From Candidatus Omnitrophota bacterium (GTDB lineage Bacteria; Omnitrophota; Gorgyraeia; Gygaellales; Profunditerraquicolaceae), in NCBI GenBank assembly GCA_028712255.1, contig JAQTQJ010000002.1, forward strand, positions 86,846 to 150,845: DNA of 64,000 nt, given 5' to 3'. Positions 2,079-19,610 of this stretch are shown here, piece by piece. Position 1 is the first letter of the stretch. Each line of letters opens with the position of its first letter. A program made the position numbers and the translations under genes. The notes beneath the pieces were generated by a model. That model saw only the letters and a program-made list of their open reading frames with translations, did not search any database and was not told the DNA's origin.

Positions 2079-3131
2079 ATGAATCTAAAGATTTTGGAGC
2101 AGGTATTTTTCGGTAATCGTATTTTAGATTACATCATTGCTTTATTAACATTAGCCCTGGGCATACTCTTTGTTAAAGTTATTGTGCGTTTCATTATAGG
2201 GCGGCTTAAGAAATTTGCCAGGATGACTACTACAACTTTTGACGATTTATTGGCGGAGATTCTCGAGAGAGTTGTTTTGCCTGCTTTATTCATTAGCTGT
2301 TTCTATTTGAGTCTAAAGACTTTGAAAATGCCCTTGGTGATAAACGGGGTAATTAATGTCCTGCAGTTAGTATTAGTTACCTTTTTTGCCACGCGGGCGA
2401 TTGTTATGTTTGTCAGCCATAGCCTAAATATCTATTTAACAAAAAAGCAAGAAGATACCACAGTGGTGCGAAGTCTCAGTGGAATGTTAAATGTGATGAA
2501 GTTCTTAATTTGGGCAATGGCGGTTATAATTTTATTGGATAACCTCGGTTATAAAGTCTCCACAATCATTGCCGGTTTAGGAATTGGTGGCATTGCTGTG
2601 GCTATAGCTGCACAAGCCCTTTTGAAAGATTTCTTCAGTTATTTTTCTATAGTATTCGACCGGCCCTTTAAACTGGGAGATTTTATTATAATCGGTGACT
2701 TTATGGGTACAGTTGAGTATATTGGAATTAAAACCACGCGCATACGTAGCTTAGGAGGGGAGCAGGTAATATTTTCCAATACGGACCTAACGGATTCACG
2801 GGTCAGAAATTATAAGCTTATGGAGAAAAGGCGTATCTTATTCCGGCTAGGCGTAACTTATCAAACTTCTCTTGGCCAGCTAAAAGAAATGCCCAAAATT
2901 ATTGAGCGTATCATTAAAAACACTAAGGATGTTGCTTTTGACCGCGCGCATTTTTTCAGCTACGGCGATTTTAGCCTAATATTTGAAGTCGTGTATTTTG
3001 TTTTGAATCCCGATTACAACAAATATATGGATATTCAACAAGAGATTAATTTTGCGATTAAAGAGGAGTTTGAAAAACGCGGTATAGAGTTTGCCTATCC
3101 TACGCAGACACTTTTTGTAACTAAACAATAA
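2079..3131 (+). CDS. MscS-family small-conductance mechanosensitive channel
   Basis: N-terminal TM helices, pore helix GLGIGGIAVAIAAQ, beta-domain DFIIIGDFMGTVEYIGIKTTRIRSLGGEQVIFSN matching MscS core. Confidence 0.8.
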   Translation: MNLKILEQVFFGNRILDYIIALLTLALGILFVKVIVRFIIGRLKKFARMTTTTFDDLLAEILERVVLPALFISCFYLSLKTLKMPLVINGVINVLQLVLVTFFATRAIVMFVSHSLNIYLTKKQEDTTVVRSLSGMLNVMKFLIWAMAVIILLDNLGYKVSTIIAGLGIGGIAVAIAAQALLKDFFSYFSIVFDRPFKLGDFIIIGDFMGTVEYIGIKTTRIRSLGGEQVIFSNTDLTDSRVRNYKLMEKRRILFRLGVTYQTSLGQLKEMPKIIERIIKNTKDVAFDRAHFFSYGDFSLIFEVVYFVLNPDYNKYMDIQQEINFAIKEEFEKRGIEFAYPTQTLFVTKQ

Positions 3132-4651: not shown

Positions 4652-5284
4652 ATGGGATTAATATCGCTTTTGTTCAGTAATCCGGCTCTTTTTGTAATTC
4701 TGGCTGTCATACTTCTTTATTCGGTTATTTTACATGAAGTTGCCCATGGTTGGGTGGCGCATCTTTTTGGCGATGATACAGCTTTATATAACGGAAGATT
4801 GACTTTTAACCCTGCGTCACACCTTGATCCGATAGGTACGCTGATGCTTTTTCTGGTAGGATTTGGCTGGGCAAGGCCGGTGCCGGTAGATTACTCCAGA
4901 TTTAGTAATACTCGCTTCGGATTATTCTCTGTTGCCTTGGCAGGATGCTTAACGAACATACTCATCGCAGTAATTGCGCTGATTTTATTGCAATTTGATT
5001 TCATTAATGCTAATTCTGCCTTTTCGGTTATCCTGCCTATTGTCGTAAGGATTAATATTATTCTGGGAGCTTTTAATTTAATACCAATTCCTCCTCTTGA
5101 TGGCTCAAAGATACTCATGAGTTTTCTCCCCTACCAGGCACAAGAGAATCTAGCGAGCCTAGAGCCATATGGGTTTTTTATTTTAGTGATTTTGCTTTTT
5201 ACCGGTATATTGAATTCCGTGATAGCCTTTATGCAGAATTTAATTTACGGTATTATTAGCATATTGTTTAGTTTATTTAGATAA
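4652..5284 (+). CDS. small site-2 protease (peptidase M50 family) membrane metalloprotease
   Basis: HEVAHG zinc motif in TM helix, second motif LNLIPIPPLDG; 210 aa polytopic. Confidence 0.7.
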   Translation: MGLISLLFSNPALFVILAVILLYSVILHEVAHGWVAHLFGDDTALYNGRLTFNPASHLDPIGTLMLFLVGFGWARPVPVDYSRFSNTRFGLFSVALAGCLTNILIAVIALILLQFDFINANSAFSVILPIVVRINIILGAFNLIPIPPLDGSKILMSFLPYQAQENLASLEPYGFFILVILLFTGILNSVIAFMQNLIYGIISILFSLFR

Positions 5285-5408
5285 ATCTCAATAAGAAATA
5301 AAGGTATTAATTTAATTAAATAATGCAATTACTATATAAACTTAGTAAGAATAATTCCAGAGAAATATTACATAATCCGGAAATAAGTATGATGTCCCCA
5401 GAATTCCA

Positions 5409-5439
5409 GTTTCTTGATTAGATCGGAAAGTGTCTGCTT
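5409..5439. promoter_or_regulatory. conserved 31-nt motif copy B
   Basis: 29/31 identical to 4541-4573. Confidence 0.3.
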
Positions 5440-5644
5440 TAACGATCAATAGCCTTTTTTATACCTGTATTTAGAGAGTCTTCCCCTTGCGCCGTATTCC
5501 TGCCCGCCCTTACGAGGTTCACTCTCAAATTTCTATATATAATTCACTCTATTGTAGTAGAAAAAAGTCAATTAAATACTGAATTAAATCAATGAATCGG
5601 TTGTATTAATTTGTGAAAGATGTATAATAAAAATATAGGAATAA

Positions 5645-5738
5645 GAAATTAAGTGGTCCGGAGATAGCAAGTTGTTTCCGGAGGTGTTTCTTAGATGGTC
5701 GGGCCGCCATCTTGCATTTAATGCAGGGTGGTTTTTTT
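5645..5738 (+). ncRNA. candidate structured small RNA / terminator module, copy 1 (P1 hairpin UCCGGA...UCCGGA, P2 AGAUGG-UCGGGCCG-CCAUCU, terminal hairpin + U-run)
   Basis: own promoter-like TTGTAT-16-TATAAT at 5601-5628; paralogous copy at 12283-12362 with compensatory changes; ends in GGUGG+U7. Confidence 0.35.
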
Positions 5739-5755
5739 ATTTTAGGGGGCGATAA

Positions 5756-6318
5756 ATGGGCATTTCTTCAGCATTCTTTATTAATAATTTATTTGAAATT
5801 TTAGTTCCGGTTGGAATAATTATCTTAACTTTAATTTGCGGGTTTATTATAGGAAAAATTGTCTTTGTGCGTCTTAGTTACTGGTCAAAGCAGACTAAAA
5901 CTCAAATTGATGATATCGTTATAGACTCAATAATGTTGTATTGATTCCTAATGAGAAATTGACAAAAGCAATTGTTACCAATTATTACCTGCCGGAAAAG
6001 GAGATGATGGTTTTAGTAAATTTAGGGGTTCACTATAAAAGCGACCTAAAAGAAGTTGAGCAAATAACTTGTGAAGTCGCCAAGGAAGTCATGCAAGAAA
6101 TCCCCGGAGGCGTGCCTAAATTTGATCCGTTTATTAGTTATGGTGGTTTTGGGGATTCCAATATCAGCCTGACCGTTATTTTGAGGGCAAAGGAATTTGT
6201 AGGCCAATATTTAATTAAGCATGAATTTATAAAAAGGCTCCATGATCGTTATGCCAAAGAGGGCATTGTAATTTCTTATCCGATAAGAGCGATAAATTAT
6301 CAGCAGGAGGAGGAATAA
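5756..6318 (+). pseudogene. MscS-family channel remnant (frameshift at ~5941 plus loss of pore-helix/TM3 segment)
   Basis: 62-aa N-terminal TM fragment then, in another frame, the MscS beta-domain (IPNEKLTKAIVTNYY... cf. E. coli IPNGKIIAGNIINFS); together only ~187 aa versus ~350 aa for the intact paralog at 2079. Confidence 0.55.
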
Positions 6319-8550
6319 ATGAGACGACTACTCATATTTATATTGCCGATTTTGATTATTGTAGCCATTGGGTTTACGGTTTTTGGCATTATGCAAATCC
6401 GTTTTACTCAGGATAAATTGATGGATGATCTCCAAAAAAAGGCTAAAGCTGTTGCTGAAAGTATTGATTTTTCGGCAAAAACTATTCTTTTGAATAATGA
6501 TTTAAAATCCGCAAGCCGCCTTGTCGAGAGTTTCCAGAAGAGGGAGCGGCTGCAGGGGTGTATTATTTATGATAAGGAAGGAAAGGTTTTTGCGATTACG
6601 GAAAGATTCTCCGACTGGAAAGAGCAAGAAAAACCTTATCTTCAGGATATTCTGGCGAGTAAAACTCCCCGCGGAGTTTTGGAAAACTTCAAAGATTATG
6701 CGGTATATAGCTATATCATTCCTGTAAACGATGACGAAGGTAATATATTAGGAATGGTCGAAGTCATTTATGATACTTCTTATGTTTTTACGACGATGAC
6801 TGATCTCTGGAGGCGTTTGAGCGTCTCTTTAATATCTCTACTGGTCTTAATTGTATTGATAATGTTTTTGATTCAAAGGCAGATATTTACCCTGCCCGTT
6901 GTTAGGCTTACCAAGTGGTTCCAATATTTTCAAAGAGGGGAAACCGAGCAGGCGTATCCAATTAAAGGAAAAGATGAACTTGGAAAACTTGCGAGTGAAG
7001 TTGAGCAGGTAGCTTTAAGTTTAAGAGTGGCGCGTAAAGTTGTAAGTCAGAAGGCTACAGAGCGTATTGAGAAAGATGAGCTCTGGACTGAAAGCAAGCT
7101 CCGCGATCTTATTCACGCCCGCTTGGGAGAGAATGCCCTGTTTGTTGTGTCCAACAGGGAGCCTTACATGCATGTTATTGATGATGTTACCGGGCAGCCA
7201 AAGTGTATTAGGCCGGCCAGTGGTGTTGTTACCGCAATAGATCCAATATTGCGCGCTTGTGGAGGAACATGGGTTGGCCATGGTAGTGGAAACGCTGATA
7301 GGAAATTTGTAAATTCAAAAGATAAGCTTGGAGTGCCTCCCGGAGATAACCGGTATATTCTTAAAAGAGTTTGGTTATCTAAAGAAGAAGAGGAAGGTTA
7401 TTATTATGGTTTTGCTAATGAGGGATTGTGGCCTTTGTGTCATATGACGCATACAAGGCCGTTATTCAGAGAATCCGATTGGCAAATGTATAAAAAAGTA
7501 AATCAGAAGTTTGCGGATAGTATCTTGTCGGAATTGCCGGCAAAAAATCCTTTTGTATTTATTCAGGATTACCATTTTACTTTGCTTGCCATGATGATTA
7601 AAGAGAAACGTCCGGATGCAAGAATAGCTTTATTCTGGCACATTCCCTGGCCGAATCCGGAGGTTTTTTCAACCTGTCCGTATCATAAACAGATTTTGGA
7701 GGGTATGCTTGCCTGTGATTTGATTGGTTTTCATGTGCAAAGCCACTGCAATAATTTCCTTGAAACTTCAAATAGGTTGCTTGAATCCCGCGTTGATACA
7801 GAAAAATTCAGCATCGTTCGTTTGGGAAAGGAAACATTTGTCAGGGCGTTTCCCATAAGCGTTGATGGATATTTAAATCAAGGCAAGCAGGATTTAGGTT
7901 TAGCCGGTGAAATGGATAGAATCAAAAAGGAATTTGAATTGGAAGGAAAAATTGTAGCCATAGGCGTTGACAGAATTGATTATACAAAGGGTTTAATCGA
8001 GCGGATCCTTGCAGTGGATAGGTTTATAGAGAAAAATCCGCAATATAAAAACAAATTCGTTTTTATCCAGTTGGCCGCTCCCAGCAGGACGCACATTAAG
8101 CATTACCATGATTTAATGAATGAAGTTGATGAATTGGTAGAAAAAAAGAATTGGAAATACTCAGAAGGAGAGTGGCGTCCGATAGTTTATTTAAAAAAAC
8201 ATTTTTCTCCTGAGGAGATAAAGCCATATTATGCACTTGCCGACATATGTATTGTTAGCTCTCTTCATGATGGCATGAACCTCGTGGCTAAGGAGTATGT
8301 GGCATCAAAAAGCAGCCTTGACGGCGCGTTGATATTGAGCCGTTTTACCGGAGCTGCCAAGGAATTAACAGATTCAATTCTGATCAATCCTTACTCAATT
8401 GAAGAATTTTCGGATGCTATAAAATTAGCCATAGAAATGCCACTTGAGGAAAAAAGAAAACGGATGGAAAATATGCGCAAGATTGTTTCCGAGAATAACG
8501 TTTATCGCTGGGCAGGGAATATTGTTACAGAATTAACCGCATTAAAATAA
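6319..8550 (+). CDS. otsA: trehalose-6-phosphate synthase (GT20, OtsA) fused to an N-terminal TM-periplasmic sensor-TM-HAMP module
   Basis: C-terminal ~480 aa is canonical OtsA (LFVVSNREPY, IQDYHFTLLA, LFWHIPWPNPEVF); N-terminal 250 aa has two TM helices flanking a ~150 aa extracytoplasmic domain, then a HAMP-like amphipathic segment. Confidence 0.8.
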   Translation: MRRLLIFILPILIIVAIGFTVFGIMQIRFTQDKLMDDLQKKAKAVAESIDFSAKTILLNNDLKSASRLVESFQKRERLQGCIIYDKEGKVFAITERFSDWKEQEKPYLQDILASKTPRGVLENFKDYAVYSYIIPVNDDEGNILGMVEVIYDTSYVFTTMTDLWRRLSVSLISLLVLIVLIMFLIQRQIFTLPVVRLTKWFQYFQRGETEQAYPIKGKDELGKLASEVEQVALSLRVARKVVSQKATERIEKDELWTESKLRDLIHARLGENALFVVSNREPYMHVIDDVTGQPKCIRPASGVVTAIDPILRACGGTWVGHGSGNADRKFVNSKDKLGVPPGDNRYILKRVWLSKEEEEGYYYGFANEGLWPLCHMTHTRPLFRESDWQMYKKVNQKFADSILSELPAKNPFVFIQDYHFTLLAMMIKEKRPDARIALFWHIPWPNPEVFSTCPYHKQILEGMLACDLIGFHVQSHCNNFLETSNRLLESRVDTEKFSIVRLGKETFVRAFPISVDGYLNQGKQDLGLAGEMDRIKKEFELEGKIVAIGVDRIDYTKGLIERILAVDRFIEKNPQYKNKFVFIQLAAPSRTHIKHYHDLMNEVDELVEKKNWKYSEGEWRPIVYLKKHFSPEEIKPYYALADICIVSSLHDGMNLVAKEYVASKSSLDGALILSRFTGAAKELTDSILINPYSIEEFSDAIKLAIEMPLEEKRKRMENMRKIVSENNVYRWAGNIVTELTALK

Positions 8551-8568
8551 AGGTATGGGATAATAGTT

Positions 8569-9566
8569 ATGTTTAACCAGTTGTTTCATCATTTAACTAA
8601 TGTGACTATACCTAACCTTAATGGATTGTTGTTGGGGGTAATTCTATTTGCAGGAACCATAGGGGGTAGGACATTTCAGCGGTTCAAAATACCTCAAGTG
8701 GTCGGGTATGTGGTTACGGGAATTTTACTTGGGCAGAGCGGTTTTAAGATTATAGAAAAAAACATGATTCAGGTACTTGTGCCATTTAGCTATTTTGCTC
8801 TAGGGCTTATAGGCTTTATGATTGGCGGAGAACTTAAGAAAGAGTCATTCCGCCGTTATGGAAAACAGTTTACTTTTATTTTGCTTGCCGAAGGATTAGG
8901 AGCTTTTATACTAGTTTCGCTTTTTTAGGTTTAGTGGGGCAGTTTTTCTTGCCCAAAGGCGTAAATTATTGGGTGTTGGCGTTATTATTGGGGGCTATAT
9001 CTTCGGCTACCGCTCCTGCGGCAACAGTAGATGTACTCTGATATAAGACAGCAGGGCCGCTAACAACCATGGTTTTGGGAATCGTAGCTATGGATGATGG
9101 ATTGGCTTTAGTTTTATTTGCCTTTGCTTCTAGTATAGCTGCGGTAATGTTAGGGGGGGGCACTCTTTAGGATTATCCTCTTTTGATATTAAGGAATGCA
9201 TCATTAAATAGCGTACTTGATACCTTCGCTAATAGTGATTACAATAATTATCCAGTTGTAGATAAAGAGGAAAGATTATTAGGAATTATAACCGCGGAAA
9301 GCATAAGAGCTGCCTTTAAGCATAAAGATTTGGAAAATCTTGTTGTAGCCGAAGATATTATGGAACCCGTTATTACATATAATATACGGGGCCAAGATTT
9401 ATTGCGTAAAGCCAATGAATATATGGACAGACATAATTTTGAATATCTACCCATAGTTACTGATGAGTCAAAAATCGTTGGATTTATAGGGAAAAGAATA
9501 ATAAACAAATTTATCTCTACGAGATTGATGGAAATTGAACAAAAAATTAAATCTTTAGAGAAATGA
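8569..9566 (+). pseudogene. degraded monovalent cation:proton antiporter (CPA family) with C-terminal CBS pair; the CBS part (9183-9566, TTG start) may still be expressed
   Basis: TM fragment 8569-8928, frameshift, then same-frame segments interrupted by in-frame TGA (~9040) and TAG (9168-9170) just after a G8 homopolymer (9153-9160); total far shorter than intact CPA transporters. Confidence 0.55.
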
Positions 9567-9572
9567 AGGCCA

Positions 9573-10379
9573 TTGATTAATATGAAGTATCTATTTAAAA
9601 ACTGGGATGGAATTAAAAAAGATCTAAGCGATAACTATATTTTACTTTTTTTAGATTATGATGGTACTTTGGCTCCAATTGTCAGTACGCCAGAGGAGGC
9701 ATCTATTTCGCCAGAGGTAAAGGATCTACTGAGCGAATTATCAAAAAATCTCAATTGCAAATTAGCTATTATTAGCGGCAGGTCATTAAAAGATATAAAA
9801 AATATTATAGGCTTAAAAGAGGTTATTTATTCCGGAAATCACGGTTTAGAAATAGAAGGCCCAAAGATTAAATTTGAAGCCCAGGTTTTACCACGATTAA
9901 AATTGGTTATTCGAGCTATTGCCGCGGATATGAAAAAGCGATTTTTAGGCATTAAGGGTGTACTAATTGAGGATAAGGGTTTGACTTTGAGTATTCACTA
10001 TCGTAAGGTTAGTAAGAAGGATATGCCTGTATTTGAGAAGATTATTTTTGAAGTTACTAATCCTTATGTAGCGGGCGATAATATAAAGGTTAATTCCGGT
10101 AAAAAAGTTTATGAGATAAAACCGCCTATTAAATGGGATAAAGGCAAGGTAGTTTTGTGGCTTCTTGCAAGGCGGCAATTTATTTCGGGAGAGAAGAATG
10201 TTTTACCGGTTTATATCGGAGATGATGTAACCGATGAAGATGTTTTTAAGGCTTTAAAAAGAAAAGGATTGACGGTGTTCGTGGGAGAATCCGGGGATTC
10301 CAATGCTGATTATTATTTAAAGAATACAGAAGAAGTAACTAAATTTTTACGCTTAATATCGGACTTAAAGCATAATTAA
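9573..10379 (+). CDS. otsB: trehalose-6-phosphate phosphatase (HAD family)
   Basis: LFLDYDGTLAPIV HAD motif I, GDDVTDED motif; adjacent to otsA. Confidence 0.8.
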   Translation: MINMKYLFKNWDGIKKDLSDNYILLFLDYDGTLAPIVSTPEEASISPEVKDLLSELSKNLNCKLAIISGRSLKDIKNIIGLKEVIYSGNHGLEIEGPKIKFEAQVLPRLKLVIRAIAADMKKRFLGIKGVLIEDKGLTLSIHYRKVSKKDMPVFEKIIFEVTNPYVAGDNIKVNSGKKVYEIKPPIKWDKGKVVLWLLARRQFISGEKNVLPVYIGDDVTDEDVFKALKRKGLTVFVGESGDSNADYYLKNTEEVTKFLRLISDLKHN

Positions 10380-10381
10380 TT

Positions 10382-11050
10382 ATGTCGGAATTAATAAAAG
10401 CAAAAGAACCGTTTAAATTTTGCACGAGATTGCATTTATCGGAACTTACCGGATTGCGTGCTAATACCTTAGGCCAACTCTTAGCTCTTATTAAGGAAGT
10501 GCCTGGTTCATGTATTTATCACCACACACATAGATTCTTGCAGCAGCATCAGTTTCTCTCACCTGAGCCTCCTAATGACTTTGCTTACTGGGTAACGGAT
10601 ATTTTGGGAGAAGATGAGCTTGGCGAAAGGTTAGTTAGTATTGACACTATACAATACTCAACTATTCGTGATTTACGCGAAAAGATTGCCTCGACCATTG
10701 AGAATTATTTGAATGATAACCCGTTGGCTAAAATGAGGTTTGCCCGCCAAGGAGAAGAATTCCATTTTATTAAATCAATAAGTTTTGTCCTGCCAACAAA
10801 CTATGTAGCCTATGATTTAGAAGAGTTTACAGAAGTTTTAAATAAAATAACCATAGATTCTATTTATTTCCATATTTTTGAAGCTCGCCTAAGGCTTGAA
10901 AAACCAACAAATGATTTTTCGTTCTGGATAGAAAATTCTCTGGGAGACAAAAAATTAGCAAATAGCATCGCAAGTTTCGATCCTTATACGAGCACATTAG
11001 AAGATCTAAGAAAAAAGATTATCCGTATAATCGAGAGGAAAATATCATAA
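10382..11050 (+). CDS. hypothetical protein with two tandem ~100-aa internal repeats, embedded in the trehalose cluster
   Basis: repeat NDFAYWVTDILGEDELGERL... / NDFSFWIENSLGDKKLANSI...; no assignable catalytic motif. Confidence 0.45.
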   Translation: MSELIKAKEPFKFCTRLHLSELTGLRANTLGQLLALIKEVPGSCIYHHTHRFLQQHQFLSPEPPNDFAYWVTDILGEDELGERLVSIDTIQYSTIRDLREKIASTIENYLNDNPLAKMRFARQGEEFHFIKSISFVLPTNYVAYDLEEFTEVLNKITIDSIYFHIFEARLRLEKPTNDFSFWIENSLGDKKLANSIASFDPYTSTLEDLRKKIIRIIERKIS

Positions 11051-11054
11051 TAAA

Positions 11055-12269
11055 ATGGCAAAATTAGAGGCATATATCCCTTTGGTGGGACAATCAGTTA
11101 TAGATGATTTGAGCCTCCTTGGGGAAAGATTGAAAGGTAAACTTGTCCAGCATATTAATTCTACTCCTGTGGGTGGGGGGGTTGCTGAGATATTAAACCG
11201 CATGGTGCCTCTGTTGATTGAATTGGGGGTAGATACCAAATGGGATGTAATAAAAGGCGGCGAACAGTTTTTTGGAGTAACAAAGAAATTCCATAATGCC
11301 TTACACGGTAGAGCAGAAGAGATAACCCAAAGAGATTTTGAAGTATTTATGGAAACAAGCCGACAGAATATTGAAAATATTGATACCTATGGAGAAATAG
11401 TCTTTGTCCATGATCCGCAGCCAATAGCACTGATAAAAAAGAAGACTGCTAATAAATGGCTTTGGCGTTGCCATGTTGATGTATCTGATCCTAATGAAAA
11501 GGTTTGGGGATTTCTTATGGATTTTATCACTCAGTACGACTCAGCAGTGTTTTCTGCTCCTGCTTTTTCACGGAAATTGCCAATAAGGCAATTCTTGATT
11601 CCGCCTTCTATTGATCCGTTAAGCGATAAAAACAAGGAGTTGCCGCAGGAAACGATTAATTCGGTTCTAAGAAAATATGATATCAAAAAAGATAAGCCAA
11701 TTGTCATGCAGATATCTCGTTTTGATCGCTTAAAAGATCCGTTAGGTGTAATTGACGCATATTTACAGGTAAAAAAATATATTGATTGTCAACTAGTGTT
11801 AGCTGGCGGTACTGCGGAGGATGACCCTGAAGGATTTAAAGTTCTAGATGAGATTAAAGAAAAAGCTAAGGATGATCCGGATATTCATATTTTACTATTA
11901 CCCCAAAACGACATAGAAGTCAATGCATTGCAAAGGGCATCAGATGTAATTGTTCAGAAGTCTCTAAAAGAAGGATTTGGTTTAACGGTTGCAGAGGCCT
12001 TGTGGAAAGCAAAACCTGTAGTGGCTTCAAATGTTGGAGGTATCCCTTTACAAATAAAACATAAGTATTCGGGATTATTGTGTCATTCTGTTGGAGGAGC
12101 AAGTTTCGCTATAAAACAACTCTTAAGCAGCCCGGAATACGCCAAGAAACTAGGAGAAAATGGGAGGGAACATATAAAAAATAACTTTTTGATTACGCGT
12201 CATCTTAGGGATTATATGCTATTGTTTCTTTCGTTATATCATTCTGAGGATATCGTTCATCTCTGTTAA
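11055..12269 (+). CDS. TreT-like trehalose synthase / GT4-family glycosyltransferase
   Basis: GT-B fold with GGGVAEIL-type N-terminal motif and C-terminal EGFGLTVAEALWKAKPVV, resembling archaeal/bacterial TreT. Confidence 0.6.
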   Translation: MAKLEAYIPLVGQSVIDDLSLLGERLKGKLVQHINSTPVGGGVAEILNRMVPLLIELGVDTKWDVIKGGEQFFGVTKKFHNALHGRAEEITQRDFEVFMETSRQNIENIDTYGEIVFVHDPQPIALIKKKTANKWLWRCHVDVSDPNEKVWGFLMDFITQYDSAVFSAPAFSRKLPIRQFLIPPSIDPLSDKNKELPQETINSVLRKYDIKKDKPIVMQISRFDRLKDPLGVIDAYLQVKKYIDCQLVLAGGTAEDDPEGFKVLDEIKEKAKDDPDIHILLLPQNDIEVNALQRASDVIVQKSLKEGFGLTVAEALWKAKPVVASNVGGIPLQIKHKYSGLLCHSVGGASFAIKQLLSSPEYAKKLGENGREHIKNNFLITRHLRDYMLLFLSLYHSEDIVHLC

Positions 12270-12282
12270 TTTATAATACGAG

Positions 12283-12362
12283 GGTTCGGAAGCTATTTAT
12301 TTCCGGAGGATTCAGATGGTCGGGCCGCCATCTTGCATGTGAATGTAGGATGGCGTTTTTTA
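12283..12362 (+). ncRNA. candidate structured small RNA / terminator module, copy 2
   Basis: TATAAT at 12272-12277 just after treT stop; P1 UUCGGAA/UUCCGGA (G.U-compensated versus copy 1), identical P2 AGAUGGUCGGGCCGCCAUCU, alternative GCCAUC/GAUGGC terminator + U-run. Confidence 0.35.
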
Positions 12363-12378: not shown

Positions 12379-12486
12379 ATGGATAAAGGAGTGCGTTTTA
12401 TATTTATTATAATGGGAGTTTGTATTTTGACAGGATATTGTATGGAATTTTTGCGACTACCCACAACATTAGATAAGGGGGTGTGA
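12379..12486 (+). CDS. small single-TM peptide 1 (35 aa)
   Basis: AAGGA RBS; MDKGVRFIFIIMGVCILTGYC...; first of four tandem micro-ORFs. Confidence 0.3.
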   Translation: MDKGVRFIFIIMGVCILTGYCMEFLRLPTTLDKGV

Positions 12487-12487
12487 A

Positions 12488-12625
12488 TTGAAGCTAAGCG
12501 GCTGGATATTTATGATAATTTCGTGGACATGTATTTTGAGTATGTTGGCCTTTTGTTACAATAGAATATTTAAAAAAGGCCTTGGAAGTGAGGATTCTAA
12601 AGTATTAAAGCGGCTTAAGGAATAG
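12488..12625 (+). CDS. small single-TM peptide 2 (46 aa from TTG, or 38 aa from ATG 12512)
   Basis: GGGGG RBS 7 nt upstream of TTG, overlapping previous stop; hydrophobic core then basic tail. Confidence 0.3.
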   Translation: MKLSGWIFMIISWTCILSMLAFCYNRIFKKGLGSEDSKVLKRLKE

Positions 12626-12848: not shown

Positions 12849-12989
12849 ATGAATAATTTAAGTCAAGATTGGCCTGTGTTTGCAATGTTGGGATTATTTG
12901 TATCTTTCGTTATTTATGTAATCATTAAGGGGAACCAAGCCGAAAAAGAGAAAAAGGAAGCTCGACCGCAAGATAAGGTTAATAAATAA
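12849..12989 (+). CDS. small single-TM peptide 4 (46 aa)
   Basis: G9-tract RBS 8 nt upstream; TM helix then KGNQAEKEKKEARPQDKVNK tail. Confidence 0.35.
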   Translation: MNNLSQDWPVFAMLGLFVSFVIYVIIKGNQAEKEKKEARPQDKVNK

Positions 12990-12991
12990 GA

Positions 12992-13306
12992 ATGGATAGA
13001 AACACTATTTCGCTCGTTCTTTTTGTTTTGGCCTACTTTCTGTTTGTATTATTCCCCAAGGAAAAAGGTTTCTGATTGCAATAATTACAGCCATATTATT
13101 TTTATTAACTAAAGCACTTTCATTTCCCCAGGCTTTTTACTCCATAAATTGGAATGTTATGGGAATATTTATTGGCACGTTGGTTGTTGCAGATACTTTT
13201 ATGGAAAGCAGAGCACCGGCGTATATCGCAGAAATCATTGTTAATCGCGCAAAAAATACCGCATGGGCCTATGTAATTGAAAAGATTGGTTATGAAACAA
13301 GCTAAA
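12992..13306 (+). pseudogene. N-terminal remnant of an ArsB/NhaD-family anion permease (frameshift after ~27 aa, truncated after ~100 aa)
   Basis: MDRNTISLVLFVLAYFLF... then frame shift to ...AFYSINWNVMGIFIGTLVVADTFMESRAPAYIAEIIV, matching ArsB/NhaD TM1-2; ends where the phosphoesterase remnant begins. Confidence 0.5.
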
Positions 13307-13955
13307 ATTAAAGGCGTTATAAAAGTCAAAGACAAAGTTAATTTTATCAAGAAAATTTCATCATTTACCATCTTAGGTGATCCGGGCTGCGATGGTCTAG
13401 GCGTAGAAATAATGACCACATTTGCAAGAGCCATGAATTGCACCCATACCGATTTTAAAATTATATTAGGTGACCTTGTTCCATTTGGGTTGGAGGAGTT
13501 TTATAAACATATTTACGGAATTATTAATAATGTATCGCCAAATCCCATTTTACACTTTATGCGGAAATCATGATACTGACTATTATATGGCATATTTTGG
13601 CCTGGAAAATTATCTATTAGTAAATGATGATTTGTTGATTGTTATTTTAGATAATTCAAAGAGGATATTTGAAACCCATACCCTTAAGTTTCTCGAGTAA
13701 TTCCTTAAAGAATATAAGCGTAAAAATATCCTGGTATTATTTCATATACCCCCGCCAAACAGTTTTTCAACTAATAGCATGAAAAAGGAAAAGTGGCAGA
13801 AGTTGATAGCGGTTATGGACCTCTACAAAGACAATATTAAATATATACTCTCTGGGCACGTTCATTTCTTTTGTGGAAATACAGGCCGCTTGAATGGTGA
13901 ATTGGAACATTGCCCCATATGTGGAGCTCCTTTGGATAAAATTATTAAGATATAG
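13277..13955 (+). pseudogene. calcineurin-like metallophosphoesterase remnant (one frameshift ~13470-13573, one in-frame TAA at 13698-13700) with C-terminal CxxC zinc-ribbon
   Basis: motifs GDPGCDG, GDLVPFG, CGNHDTDY, GHVHF across three ORF pieces in two frames. Confidence 0.5.
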
Positions 13956-14609: not shown

Positions 14610-15545
14610 TCAAGTAACATTTTTAACCTCCTGTTCTTTGTGATATTTTAGCCAGTATTGATAGGGCGATAAGTTGTTTAATGCTTGATGCGGCCGGTAA
14701 AGGTTATAGAACCGTTCCCAGTTTGAGATCCGGTACTTCCAGGCATGAGGATTCTTAACCGGATTAAGGTTGTAGAACTCCTCATCATCAGTCCTGTGTG
14801 AGCGCTCAACCCTGCCGTTTGATTCAGGATGAGCCGTCCTATTGAGCCAATGACGGATATTCAGCCGTGCACACGCGCAAGTTAACGGATGATCAACCTT
14901 AAATGGGCCATAAGTAAACTCAACGCCATTATCAGTGCGCACGGTAGAGATTTTAAAGGGCAGCTTTTGTACTACCTCCTGTAAAAAACGGACTGTGTTC
15001 TGGGCAGATAGCTCATCGTAGATTCTGATTACGCGAAGCCTGGTAAAGCAATCAGTTGCAGTATATTGATAGAGCCGGTTAGGGAAGCCCGGTTTTGTAT
15101 CCAGGTACTTGGTATCCATTTGTACCGTATGTCCTGGATATGGCACTCGATAAGAGCGCATATTGCGTTTCTTCTTTTTGCGGTAGTGGTTACTCAATCC
15201 ATAACGCAATAACGTTTTATAGATGGCGTGCTCTGATACAAAGATGTCTCTCTTTGAGAGATAGAACTTAAGTCGTTTTGGCCCGTAATGCGTTCTTTTA
15301 CGAAGCCGAAGTATTGCTTTAGTTGTTTGTGGTTTTAAAGCCTTTGGATGTGGCGACTTAGGCTTATGGGATTGATCTAATAGCCCGTTGTTACCTTCAT
15401 GGTTAAATCTTTTGATCCAGCGGTAAACAGTTGTCCTTGAAGTACGGTATTGCCTGGCAATAACAGCAATCTTTAAGCGTTCTTTGTAGTCTTGAACCAT
15501 TAAATATCGTTGCCTGATGTAGAAGAGCTTGGTAGAATAAGTCAT
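14610..15545 (-). CDS. IS481-family transposase (HTH + rve integrase core, DDE)
   Basis: TTVYRWIKRF HTH; VQMDTKYL, ATDCFTR, RTDNGVEF, ESNGRVERSH core motifs. Confidence 0.85.
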   Translation of the reverse strand: MTYSTKLFYIRQRYLMVQDYKERLKIAVIARQYRTSRTTVYRWIKRFNHEGNNGLLDQSHKPKSPHPKALKPQTTKAILRLRKRTHYGPKRLKFYLSKRDIFVSEHAIYKTLLRYGLSNHYRKKKKRNMRSYRVPYPGHTVQMDTKYLDTKPGFPNRLYQYTATDCFTRLRVIRIYDELSAQNTVRFLQEVVQKLPFKISTVRTDNGVEFTYGPFKVDHPLTCACARLNIRHWLNRTAHPESNGRVERSHRTDDEEFYNLNPVKNPHAWKYRISNWERFYNLYRPHQALNNLSPYQYWLKYHKEQEVKNVT

Positions 15546-18836: not shown

Positions 18837-19463
18837 ATGAAGAAGTTACTGCATATTATTGCTACACCACGCAGGGAGGAATCAAGGACTCTTAAGGTTA
18901 GTAGTTCTTTTCTTAAAGCTTTTACCGATAGCCATCCCGATTGGGAGGTAGAAGAATTTGATCTGGCAAAGGTGAAGTTGCCTGATTTGGCAGTAAAGCA
19001 GGTAAACGGGAAATACCTTCTTTTAAGCGGCAAGGATTTGACCGGCCCATTTAAGGCATCCTGGAAGGATATTTTAAAATATATCCAGCAGTTTCTGTCC
19101 GCTGACGGATACCTGCTTAGCACTCCCATGTGGAATTTTTCAATTCCGTATAAGTTAAAACATTATTTAGACGTAATTGTTCAACCTAAGTATCTTTTTC
19201 AATATACAAATACCGGTGTAGAAGGGTTGGTAAAAAATAAAAAGATGGTTGTTGTTGTTTCCAGAGGAGGAGATTATACATCAGAGCCCTTTACAAGCCG
19301 CGATCATCAGGAACCATATTTACGTTCAATTTTTGGATTTGTAGGGATCAGTGATATAAAATTTATTATCGCTCAACCGATGGATATGGGCAATGAGTTA
19401 CAGGAAAAAAGAATACAGGTTGCTCAAGGACTGGCAAAAGAAACCGCAAAAAATTTTGGATGA
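18837..19463 (+). CDS. azoR: FMN-dependent NADH-azoreductase / quinone reductase
   Basis: flavodoxin-like fold, LSTPMWNFSIPYKLKHYLD motif. Confidence 0.75.
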   Translation: MKKLLHIIATPRREESRTLKVSSSFLKAFTDSHPDWEVEEFDLAKVKLPDLAVKQVNGKYLLLSGKDLTGPFKASWKDILKYIQQFLSADGYLLSTPMWNFSIPYKLKHYLDVIVQPKYLFQYTNTGVEGLVKNKKMVVVVSRGGDYTSEPFTSRDHQEPYLRSIFGFVGISDIKFIIAQPMDMGNELQEKRIQVAQGLAKETAKNFG

Positions 19464-19469
19464 AATAAT

Positions 19470-19521
19470 GGGACCGTTTCTATTTTTCTCGAGCCTAATC
19501 TAAAAAAATAGAAACGGTCCC
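19470..19521. repeat. perfect 18-bp-stem hairpin GGGACCGTTTCTATTTTT-N16-AAAAATAGAAACGGTCCC (copy 1, followed by T-run; likely terminator)
   Basis: identical stems recur at 41660-41705. Confidence 0.6.
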
Positions 19522-19540
19522 ATTATTTCATTATTTTTTG

Positions 19541-19610
19541 TTGACATTGTATGCTATACGCATATAATAATATACAAATAGATATAACTATATGCATATA
19601 GCATACAATG
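19541..19610 (+). promoter_or_regulatory. sigma70-like promoter (TTGACA 19541-46, TATAAT 19563-68) overlapped by a 20-bp inverted-repeat operator
   Basis: arms TTGTATGCTATACGCATATA (19547-66) and TATATGCATATAGCATACAA (19589-19608), 19/20 complementary, right arm overlapping the HTH ORF start codon. Confidence 0.5.

Follow-up and report, generated by a model that had tools for sequence, protein, structure and literature searches.

The 64,000-nucleotide (nt) window analyzed here, positions 86,846 to 150,845 of contig JAQTQJ010000002.1 from a Candidatus Omnitrophota bacterium, carries two copies of a structured RNA, one at the 5' end of an operon for trehalose synthesis and the other directly after its last gene, treT. 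We consider it very probable that the two RNAs are nhaA-I riboswitches acting in cis, that they belong to a terminator-bearing, Na+-II-like branch of it, and that they act as transcriptional ON switches, with the sensed ion left between Na+ and Li+. Comparative genomics first brought the nhaA-I motif to light, as a candidate cis-regulator connected with sodium (Weinberg et al. 2017, PMC5737381), and experiments have since validated it as a class of riboswitches that respond to Li+, named Li+-I (White et al. 2022, Sci Rep 12:19145, PMC9646797). Rare variants that carry an intrinsic terminator were named Na+-II, and these authors found them only in Deltaproteobacteria (PMC9646797). The original prediction for this DNA, made from its letters alone, had described a two-copy motif that might be a small RNA (sRNA) or a riboregulator. 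Since both copies are members of an Rfam family, the riboregulator survives as a cis-acting riboswitch of a described class and the motif is not a new one; of the sRNA proposal, only the short transcript that the OFF state would release fits.

Family membership was read directly from a whole-window Rfam scan with Infernal, a check that had been suggested along with the prediction. The scan returned exactly two matches above a family threshold, both of them to nhaA-I (RF03057). Copy 1 scores 45.7 bits at 5654-5712 and copy 2 scores 47.3 bits at 12282-12333, where the gathering score is 37, and both matches are full-length (model positions 1-55 of 55; E = 3e-6 and 7e-6 for the whole window). A permissive scan of the window yielded no competing Rfam family for either copy at E <= 1 and no third copy within the 64 kb. 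Inspection of the conserved joints reveals AGG in both copies, GGGU in copy 2, and UGGU preceded by AAG in copy 1. The near-invariant P2 hairpin, GGUCGGGCCGCC, is in both copies identical to the RF03057 consensus. Each copy lies in sense orientation upstream of cation-transport or osmotic genes, and the gene classes concerned all appear in the published table of nhaA-I associations, which includes otsA (16), nhaD (6), citrate transporter (5), glycosyl transferase (5) and mscS (3).

Both copies lie at the positions at which they had been placed, and aligning them with one another indicates an identical 25-nt block, AGATGGTCGGGCCGCCATCTTGCAT, together with a common segment, TTTCCGGAGG, between flanks that have otherwise diverged. 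When the aptamer part of each copy is folded alone, the structure obtained consists of P1 and P2. When the downstream sequence is added, the minimum-energy fold of both copies swaps P2 for a hairpin of 12-13 bp followed by a T-run, where the 3' arm of P2 (GCCAUCU) doubles as the 5' arm of the terminator. At -34.0 and -33.3 kcal/mol (z about -4.5), the full-length folds were equalled in stability by 0 of 200 shuffled sequences. A terminator scan across 8 kb gave these same hairpins as its two best sites, that of copy 2 (13 bp + T6) and that of copy 1 (12 bp + T7). Alignment and folds confirm the identical P2 hairpin of the original prediction, and folds and terminator scan confirm its proposal that P2 and the terminator exclude one another in a riboswitch-like platform. 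Its description of P1 stands in part, in that the helix is shared by and compatible with both copies, but the change it had called compensatory is one-sided, the basal pair being C-G in one copy and U.G in the other.

Covariation was examined in an alignment of 39 sequences, made up of the two copies, 33 genomic aptamers, the Na+-II RNA of Desulfobulbus propionicus, and three published Li+-I sequences (P. monteilii, R. eutropha and a reporter construct). Paired cells account for 94.5% of this alignment, versus 77.7% in column shuffles and 26-69% when the pairing partners are slid. Double-sided changes occur at six of six P1 pairs, and in the alignment so examined (A2) 92.7% of cells are paired, so that P1 is supported by covariation; variation in P2 is restricted by the search pattern used to gather the sequences. 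The aptamers of 20 related loci (related loci carry L numbers here) all score above the nhaA-I threshold, and no other Rfam family reached its gathering score on them. The orthologue of copy 2 at L116 scores 56.3 bits to RF03057. The features of the locus are collected in Table 1.

Table 1 Positions of the riboswitch elements and neighboring genes in the 64,000-nt window.
Feature	Position	Strand	Basis
Likely sigma-70-type promoter of copy 1	5601-5628	+	TTGTAT 5601-5606, 16-nt spacer, TG + TATAAT 5621-5628; comparison with relatives
Riboswitch aptamer copy 1, AAGUGGU subtype	5651-5712	+	Rfam RF03057 match 5654-5712, fold
Copy 1 aptamer parts	P1 5657-5666/5673-5682; AGG 5682-5684; P2 5693-5699/5706-5712; loop CGGGCC 5700-5705	+	
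Copy 1 expression platform, intrinsic terminator	12-bp stem 5706-5732; T-run 5732-5738 (T7)	+	Fold and terminator scan
Riboswitch aptamer copy 2, GGGU subtype	12282-12333	+	Rfam RF03057, fold
Copy 2 aptamer parts	P1 12285-12292/12300-12307; AGG 12307-12309; P2 12314-12320/12327-12333; loop 12321-12326	+	
Copy 2 expression platform, intrinsic terminator	13-bp stem 12326-12355; T-run 12356-12361 (T6)	+	Fold and terminator scan
Peptidase M50 gene, precedes the gap	4652-5284		
MscS pseudogene, first coding sequence after copy 1	5756-6318 (open reading frames 5756-5944, 5941-6318)	+	Pfam MS_channel_3rd, tblastn
Membrane sensor-OtsA fusion (trehalose-6-phosphate synthase, GT20), first intact copy 1 gene	6319-8550	+	Pfam Glyco_transf_20 2e-123
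Decayed Na+/H+ exchanger	8569-8928, 8934-9041, 9069-9170	+	Pfam; tblastn
CBS-domain open reading frame	9183-9566	+	Pfam
OtsB	9573-10379	+	Pfam
DUF5752	10382-11050	+	Pfam
TreT	11055-12269	+	Pfam TreT_GT1 2.3e-53
Small membrane-protein open reading frames after copy 2	12379-12486, 12488-12625, 12849-12989	+	L116 counterparts, 79%, 82%, 46% amino-acid identity
CitMHS/NhaD-superfamily transporter remnant, former copy 2 cargo	12992-13305	+	tblastn of L116 protein

To learn how the two copies compare with their relatives, genomes and metagenomes were scanned. The genome scan used the pattern GRTGGYCGGGCCGCCAYC, meant to catch both U and C variants of the P2 hairpin, and its results are the matches listed. 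It could not recover the D. propionicus RNA because the P2 stem of that RNA differs, and its GGCCGGG matches all proved to be chance occurrences in high-GC coding DNA, which leaves the scan uninformative on the frequency of C variants. The metagenome scan was seeded with a fixed 23-mer common to both copies, which freezes P2 and half of the terminator. It matched at least 120 contigs, with 131 aptamers among the matches listed, to which the metagenome counts below also refer. A T-run follows every aptamer with a resolvable P1 (111 distinct sequences of GGGU or UGGU type). In 101 distinct related platforms, the mean terminator has 11.4 bp and an energy of -17.7 kcal/mol, the hairpin is kept in ~95%, and the sole unconstrained terminator pair covaries (UA 55, GC 10, CG 10, UG 5).

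Terminator-type aptamers occur in metagenome-assembled genomes (MAGs) labelled Nitrospirae, Elusimicrobia, Omnitrophota and Clostridia, where they precede sensor-OtsA, MscS, Na_H_Exchanger, DUF1646, OmpA and Band 7 genes; the sensor-OtsA gene in relatives has the riboswitch directly upstream. Many metagenome contigs present the order riboswitch, (MscS), sensor-OtsA, (CBS, Na_H_Exchanger), OtsB, DUF5752, TreT, riboswitch. At L146 the two aptamers lie 5 kb apart at the ends of the operon, as they do in the window, and the same gene order is found at L137, L233 and L148. The operon at L181 begins with the two aptamers in tandem, and its genes include Na_H_Exchanger, Na_Pi_cotrans and Na_Ca_ex. 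Synteny with the surroundings of copy 2 is seen on a contig from 'Candidatus Omnitrophica bacterium CG23_combo...41_10' (L116), which came from the genome scan, is 82% identical over 2.5 kb and runs OtsB, DUF5752, TreT, riboswitch, small open reading frames (ORFs), CitMHS. As judged from gene order, the window shows an ordinary form of a widespread locus in which three ion-transport genes have decayed. A 96-residue P-II-like protein (L181 1045-1335; Pfam P-II 1.8e-7, for the L181 protein alone) is a frequent first gene after GGGU-type aptamers, being found also at L143, L175, L184 and L206 and not present in the window; at L181 the gene is followed by another hairpin and T-run, and then by OtsA.

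The identity of the sensed ion was weighed against the published experiments. In single-round transcription, Na+ raises the full-length product of the D. propionicus 'hypo' Na+-II RNA, whose Na+ selectivity is linked to C54, the nucleotide just 5' of the CGGGCC loop, where most nhaA-I RNAs have U; a C54U mutant (M4) is responsive to Li+, Na+ and NH4+ (PMC9646797). As a class, Na+-II is marked by selectivity for Na+, with a KD in the low mM range, and by a weak reaction to Li+, and Li+-I by selective Li+ binding that activates expression. Position 54 was located with the sequence of the M4 template (GTTAG-T-CGGGCC), which PMC9646797 lists in its Supplementary Table II. Homology with this tested RNA suggests that the window copies would bind a cation and would have ON polarity, and it is likewise the footing on which an ion can be proposed. 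Because the copies have U at position 54 and the C54U mutant responds to all three cations, the ion is not assignable from sequence; since the cargo is osmotic, we judge Na+ to be most likely the physiological ion, and Li+ may also be sensed.

It could be argued instead that both copies are strictly Li+-selective Li+-I riboswitches, through which toxic Li+ would induce trehalose synthesis and transporters as a defence. The U just 5' of CGGGCC is what most Li+-I RNAs carry, in contrast to the C of the Na+-II representative, and White et al., who discuss Na+ sensing in osmotic stress for otsA-associated nhaA-I members, leave a Li+ response of these members possible (PMC9646797). We nevertheless regard strict Li+ selectivity as unlikely. 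Terminator platforms have been reported only for Na+-responsive variants (PMC9646797), and an intrinsic terminator mutually exclusive with the aptamer, a mark of Na+-II, is present in both copies. In the genome sample, terminators accompany 10 of 17 aptamers with a P1 base like that of D. propionicus (GGGU-YC...GR-AGG) versus 0 of 20 with the canonical base (GGGU-GC...GC-AGG), counts that were made partly by eye (L042 and a few others). NhaA (PF06965) follows 5 of the 10 canonical aptamers examined and 0 of 15 others with listed downstream ORFs, which were judged from their ORF sequences, 8 of them scanned with Pfam. That is to say, NhaA was found in this sample only after the GC..GC base and terminators only after the YC..GR base. 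As a clean separator of nhaA from osmotic cargo, the type of P1 base was rejected: the trend holds, but L064 (Anaeromyxobacter, GC..GC) precedes OtsA. The cargo also argues against a Li+ defence, comprising trehalose synthesis and MscS here and Na+-coupled transporters in relatives, and the C54U mutant itself is broadly responsive rather than Li+-specific.

Some observations weigh against assigning both copies to functional, Na+-II-like switches. At the equivalent of position 54 both have U (GAUGG-U-CGGGCC), as in Li+-I, and the C that is the signature of Na+-II is missing. Copy 1 departs from the conserved GGGU, having UGGU after AAG, and its sensing function is putative. Each copy has a pseudogene as its first downstream gene (MscS for copy 1, CitMHS/NhaD for copy 2), which means that some of the cargo under control is no longer functional and that copy 2 may be under relaxed selection in this genome.

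According to the original prediction, each copy has its own -10 box 7-10 nt upstream. TATAAT hexamers are present at 5623-5628 and 12272-12277, although the spacing proved to be different: from the end of the hexamer to the Rfam aptamer start there are 25 nt at copy 1 and 4 nt at copy 2. With 123 occurrences against 116 +/- 10 expected, TATAAT is about as common in this AT-rich window as chance predicts, and a generic -35/-10 promoter scan passed no site at either copy, the copy 1 site falling below threshold. For copy 1, a promoter of its own is upheld by comparison with relatives only. In 46 distinct relatives of copy 1 ('type A'), hexamers resembling a -10 box are most frequent at 22-29 nt before UGGU and follow a TTGA-type -35, in the pattern TTGA-N17-TATAAT-like, and the 25-nt distance of copy 1 falls inside this range. 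For copy 2, the claim does not hold. The usual distance from -10 to start site is ~7 nt, and with the hexamer only 4 nt before the conserved GGGU, a start site at that distance would therefore lie inside the aptamer. Inspection by eye of treT-downstream orthologues found the hexamer in the window, L134 and L225 and found it missing in most, for example L128, L129, L130, L148, L190, L209, L215 and L230. The copy 2 TATAAT is thus probably fortuitous, and copy 2 would most simply be transcribed by read-through from treT.

These results bear on the view that each copy is an independent sRNA gene (~90 nt, with a promoter and a terminator of its own) whose product works in trans on other mRNAs. A TATAAT hexamer does lie upstream of each copy and a strong terminator after it, and termination in the OFF state would yield a discrete short RNA. 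The full-length matches of both copies to a cis-regulatory riboswitch family, the consistent sense orientation of homologues directly upstream of osmotic and cation genes, and the placement and patchy conservation of the copy 2 hexamer leave an sRNA function very improbable; complementarity to a target, which was not sought, did not come to light either. A dispersed terminator-only or REP-like repeat devoid of sensing function is hardly credible, for while copy 2 occupies the expected site of a treT terminator and the terminator sequence CCAUCUUGCAU is common to both copies, conservation reaches ~50 nt upstream of the terminator and fits the covariation-supported aptamer model, in keeping with the earlier view that the element is more than a gene terminator, copy 1 stands at the operon 5' end, 370 nt beyond the previous gene, and the 64 kb hold no third copy.

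If both copies are terminator-bearing nhaA-I riboswitches, as we favor, a mechanism can be proposed. Binding of a monovalent cation would stabilize the aptamer, that is P1, the (G)GGU and AGG joints, and P2 with its conserved hairpin. With the GCCAUCU strand held in P2, the 5' arm of the terminator would be unavailable, so that no terminator would form and RNA polymerase would read through (ON). When the ion is absent, the more stable terminator would form and a transcript of ~100 nt would be released (OFF). Copy 1, transcribed from its own promoter, would control the MscS remnant, sensor-OtsA, (the Na+/H+ exchanger remnant and the CBS-domain ORF), OtsB, DUF5752 and TreT. A rise in salt would block its terminator and most likely switch on the trehalose-synthesis operon, whose output would constitute an osmoprotectant response. 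Copy 2 would belong to the same transcription unit, ending the operon transcript after treT in the OFF state and, in the ON state, allowing transcription to extend into the small membrane ORFs and the former CitMHS/NhaD-type transporter. The two switches would then act in series, the first governing entry to the trehalose operon and the second determining whether transcription stops after treT or extends.

Inspection of the genes around the two copies reveals a locus in partial decay. The gene-free gap reported before copy 1 is confirmed at 5285-5755 (471 bp), and so is the MscS remnant that follows it, where tblastn covers amino acids 1-59 and 222-349 of the 351-residue L231 orthologue in different frames, consistent with an internal deletion of ~162 codons. 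An intact MscS paralogue lies at 2079-3131. The Na+/H+ exchanger remnant corresponds to amino acids 7-173 of the 393-residue L181 homologue, with 34-47% identity in two frames (tblastn). Copy 2 sits directly after treT, as had been noted, beginning 13 nt on from the stop codon at 12267-12269. In the transporter remnant downstream of it, amino acids 1-25 of the L116 protein align at 12992-13066 and amino acids 23-92 at 13060-13269, again in different frames, and ~92 codons are left; the L116 protein itself matches Pfam CitMHS at 5e-14. All three ion-transport genes of the locus are pseudogenes, and the trehalose genes are intact.

The OtsA of the window is a fusion of 743 residues, in which an N-terminal transmembrane and extracytoplasmic region with weak, sub-threshold Cache- and HAMP-like matches precedes the GT20 domain. 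This architecture is kept in riboswitch-linked operons elsewhere (L107, L010, L137, L222 and others), and it suggests a second, protein-level sensory input on OtsA. Single-pass membrane ORFs of 32-46 residues are conserved directly 3' of GGGU-type aptamers (L116, L128, L130, L134, L190, L225 and others), with examples such as MDKGxRxIFIIMGVCI... and MxLSGWIFMIISWTCILSML.... The small membrane ORFs matched no Pfam family above its curated cut-off, and it may be genes of this kind that were reported as 'hypothetical' cargo of Na+-II riboswitches.

Beyond the transporter remnant, two overlapping ORFs in different frames adjoin it (13277-13573 and 13470-13700). They have no Pfam match, and reading of the sequence alone suggests a split metallophosphoesterase-like gene across 13277-13700. 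An IS481-family transposase gene (with helix-turn-helix and rve domains) lies at 14610-15545 on the minus strand. Transposase and split ORFs fit ongoing gene decay in the region. Further along, two long and almost perfect inverted repeats stand back to back at 19460-19531 (33-nt arms, 94% complementary) and 19545-19610 (29-nt arms, 90%), between an ORF ending at 19463 and the start of a 523-residue ORF at 19608. The palindrome at 19545-19610 is the source of sub-threshold matches to microRNA models, which were the sole other matches in the low-threshold Rfam scan.

Comparison of the aptamers among the metagenome matches listed sharply separates two subtypes. A GGGU start, like that of copy 2, is found in 66 distinct aptamers. 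A UGGU start, like that of copy 1, is found in 45, with AAG before it in 45 of 45 and a longer P1. That is to say, the AAGUGGU subtype has an extra U within an otherwise conserved GGGU, and a promoter always lies directly upstream of it. Where both subtypes share a contig and strand, AAGUGGU precedes GGGU in seven of seven pairs, the window included, and the two either form a tandem with a distance of ~135 nt or flank a trehalose operon, one at each end. The remaining same-strand pairs are GGGU followed by GGGU (4), and the reverse mixed order was never seen, a count of pairs that overstates independence because many of the loci are orthologous. We also considered whether the AAG that stands before UGGU could pair with the last part of the linker to form a closing helix (UAAG/CUUA in copy 1), and dropped the idea on inspection, since many relatives have no such complementarity.

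Tandem nhaA-I arrangements are known from environmental sequences, and their specificity was left open by White et al. (PMC9646797). One conceivable reading, which we hold to be speculative and on balance doubtful, is that the copies are non-equivalent: each subtype could have its own ion specificity or affinity, for example for Na+ as against Li+ or NH4+, or its own threshold, and the terminator-bearing nhaA-I RNAs with U54 outside Deltaproteobacteria could be physiological Na+ or osmotic sensors. Were this the case, control would have two inputs or two thresholds, with trehalose synthesis induced first and ion-handling genes at a higher or different cation load.

The motif itself is already in Rfam and experimentally validated, and its links to otsA, mscS and nhaD/citrate-transporter genes are already published. 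For annotation, the assignment accounts for a 471-bp gap that had seemed 'empty' and for the structured 3' region of treT. By analogy with the tested riboswitches, it also indicates that an Omnitrophota-related organism would tie trehalose synthesis to the intracellular cation level through RNA. Two additions to the published picture follow from the relatives. Terminator-type nhaA-I RNAs with the Li+-I-like U are abundant outside Deltaproteobacteria and offer natural test cases for Na+ versus Li+ sensing by otsA-associated members, and the fixed order of AAGUGGU then GGGU provides a concrete hypothesis for the tandem arrangements of White et al.

Among the known systems, Na+-I (the DUF1646 motif) resembles the window copies in its two-hairpin consensus and, as described by White et al., in being an ON switch with common terminators and Na+ or osmotic genes. 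It is a separate family according to these authors, differing in the lower part of P1 and in the P2 loop, and neither copy matches the DUF1646 consensus in the Rfam scan (E <= 1). Canonical nhaA-I (Li+-I) is closer, sharing a score above threshold, the two-stem architecture, and an identical GGUCGGGCCGCC hairpin including the U, and otsA, mscS and citrate-transporter/nhaD genes are among its rarer associations, as they are at the window copies. In contrast, its P1 base is GGGU-GC...GC-AGG, where the window copies have GGGU-CC/UC...GG-AGG, and its members lie mostly before nhaA and most probably act at the ribosome-binding site (PMC9646797), whereas at the window copies the platform is a terminator and the genes downstream are of the trehalose and MscS type. 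The Na+-II RNA of D. propionicus shares with the window copies the two-hairpin aptamer, the GGGU-CC/UC...GG-AGG base of P1, the CGGGCC loop of P2, a terminator that uses the 3' arm of P2 within its own 5' arm and is followed by a U-run, a short leader after an AT-rich promoter, and linkage to hypothetical small genes and osmotic functions. It differs in its host, a deltaproteobacterium in contrast to an Omnitrophota-related organism (82% nt identity to MAG PCRK01000131), in a P2 stem of GUUAG/CUAAC versus GAUGG/CCAUC, and in beginning with GGGU where copy 1 begins with AAGUGGU. Position 54 is C in the D. propionicus RNA and U in the window copies, which are in this respect natural counterparts of the C54U mutant.

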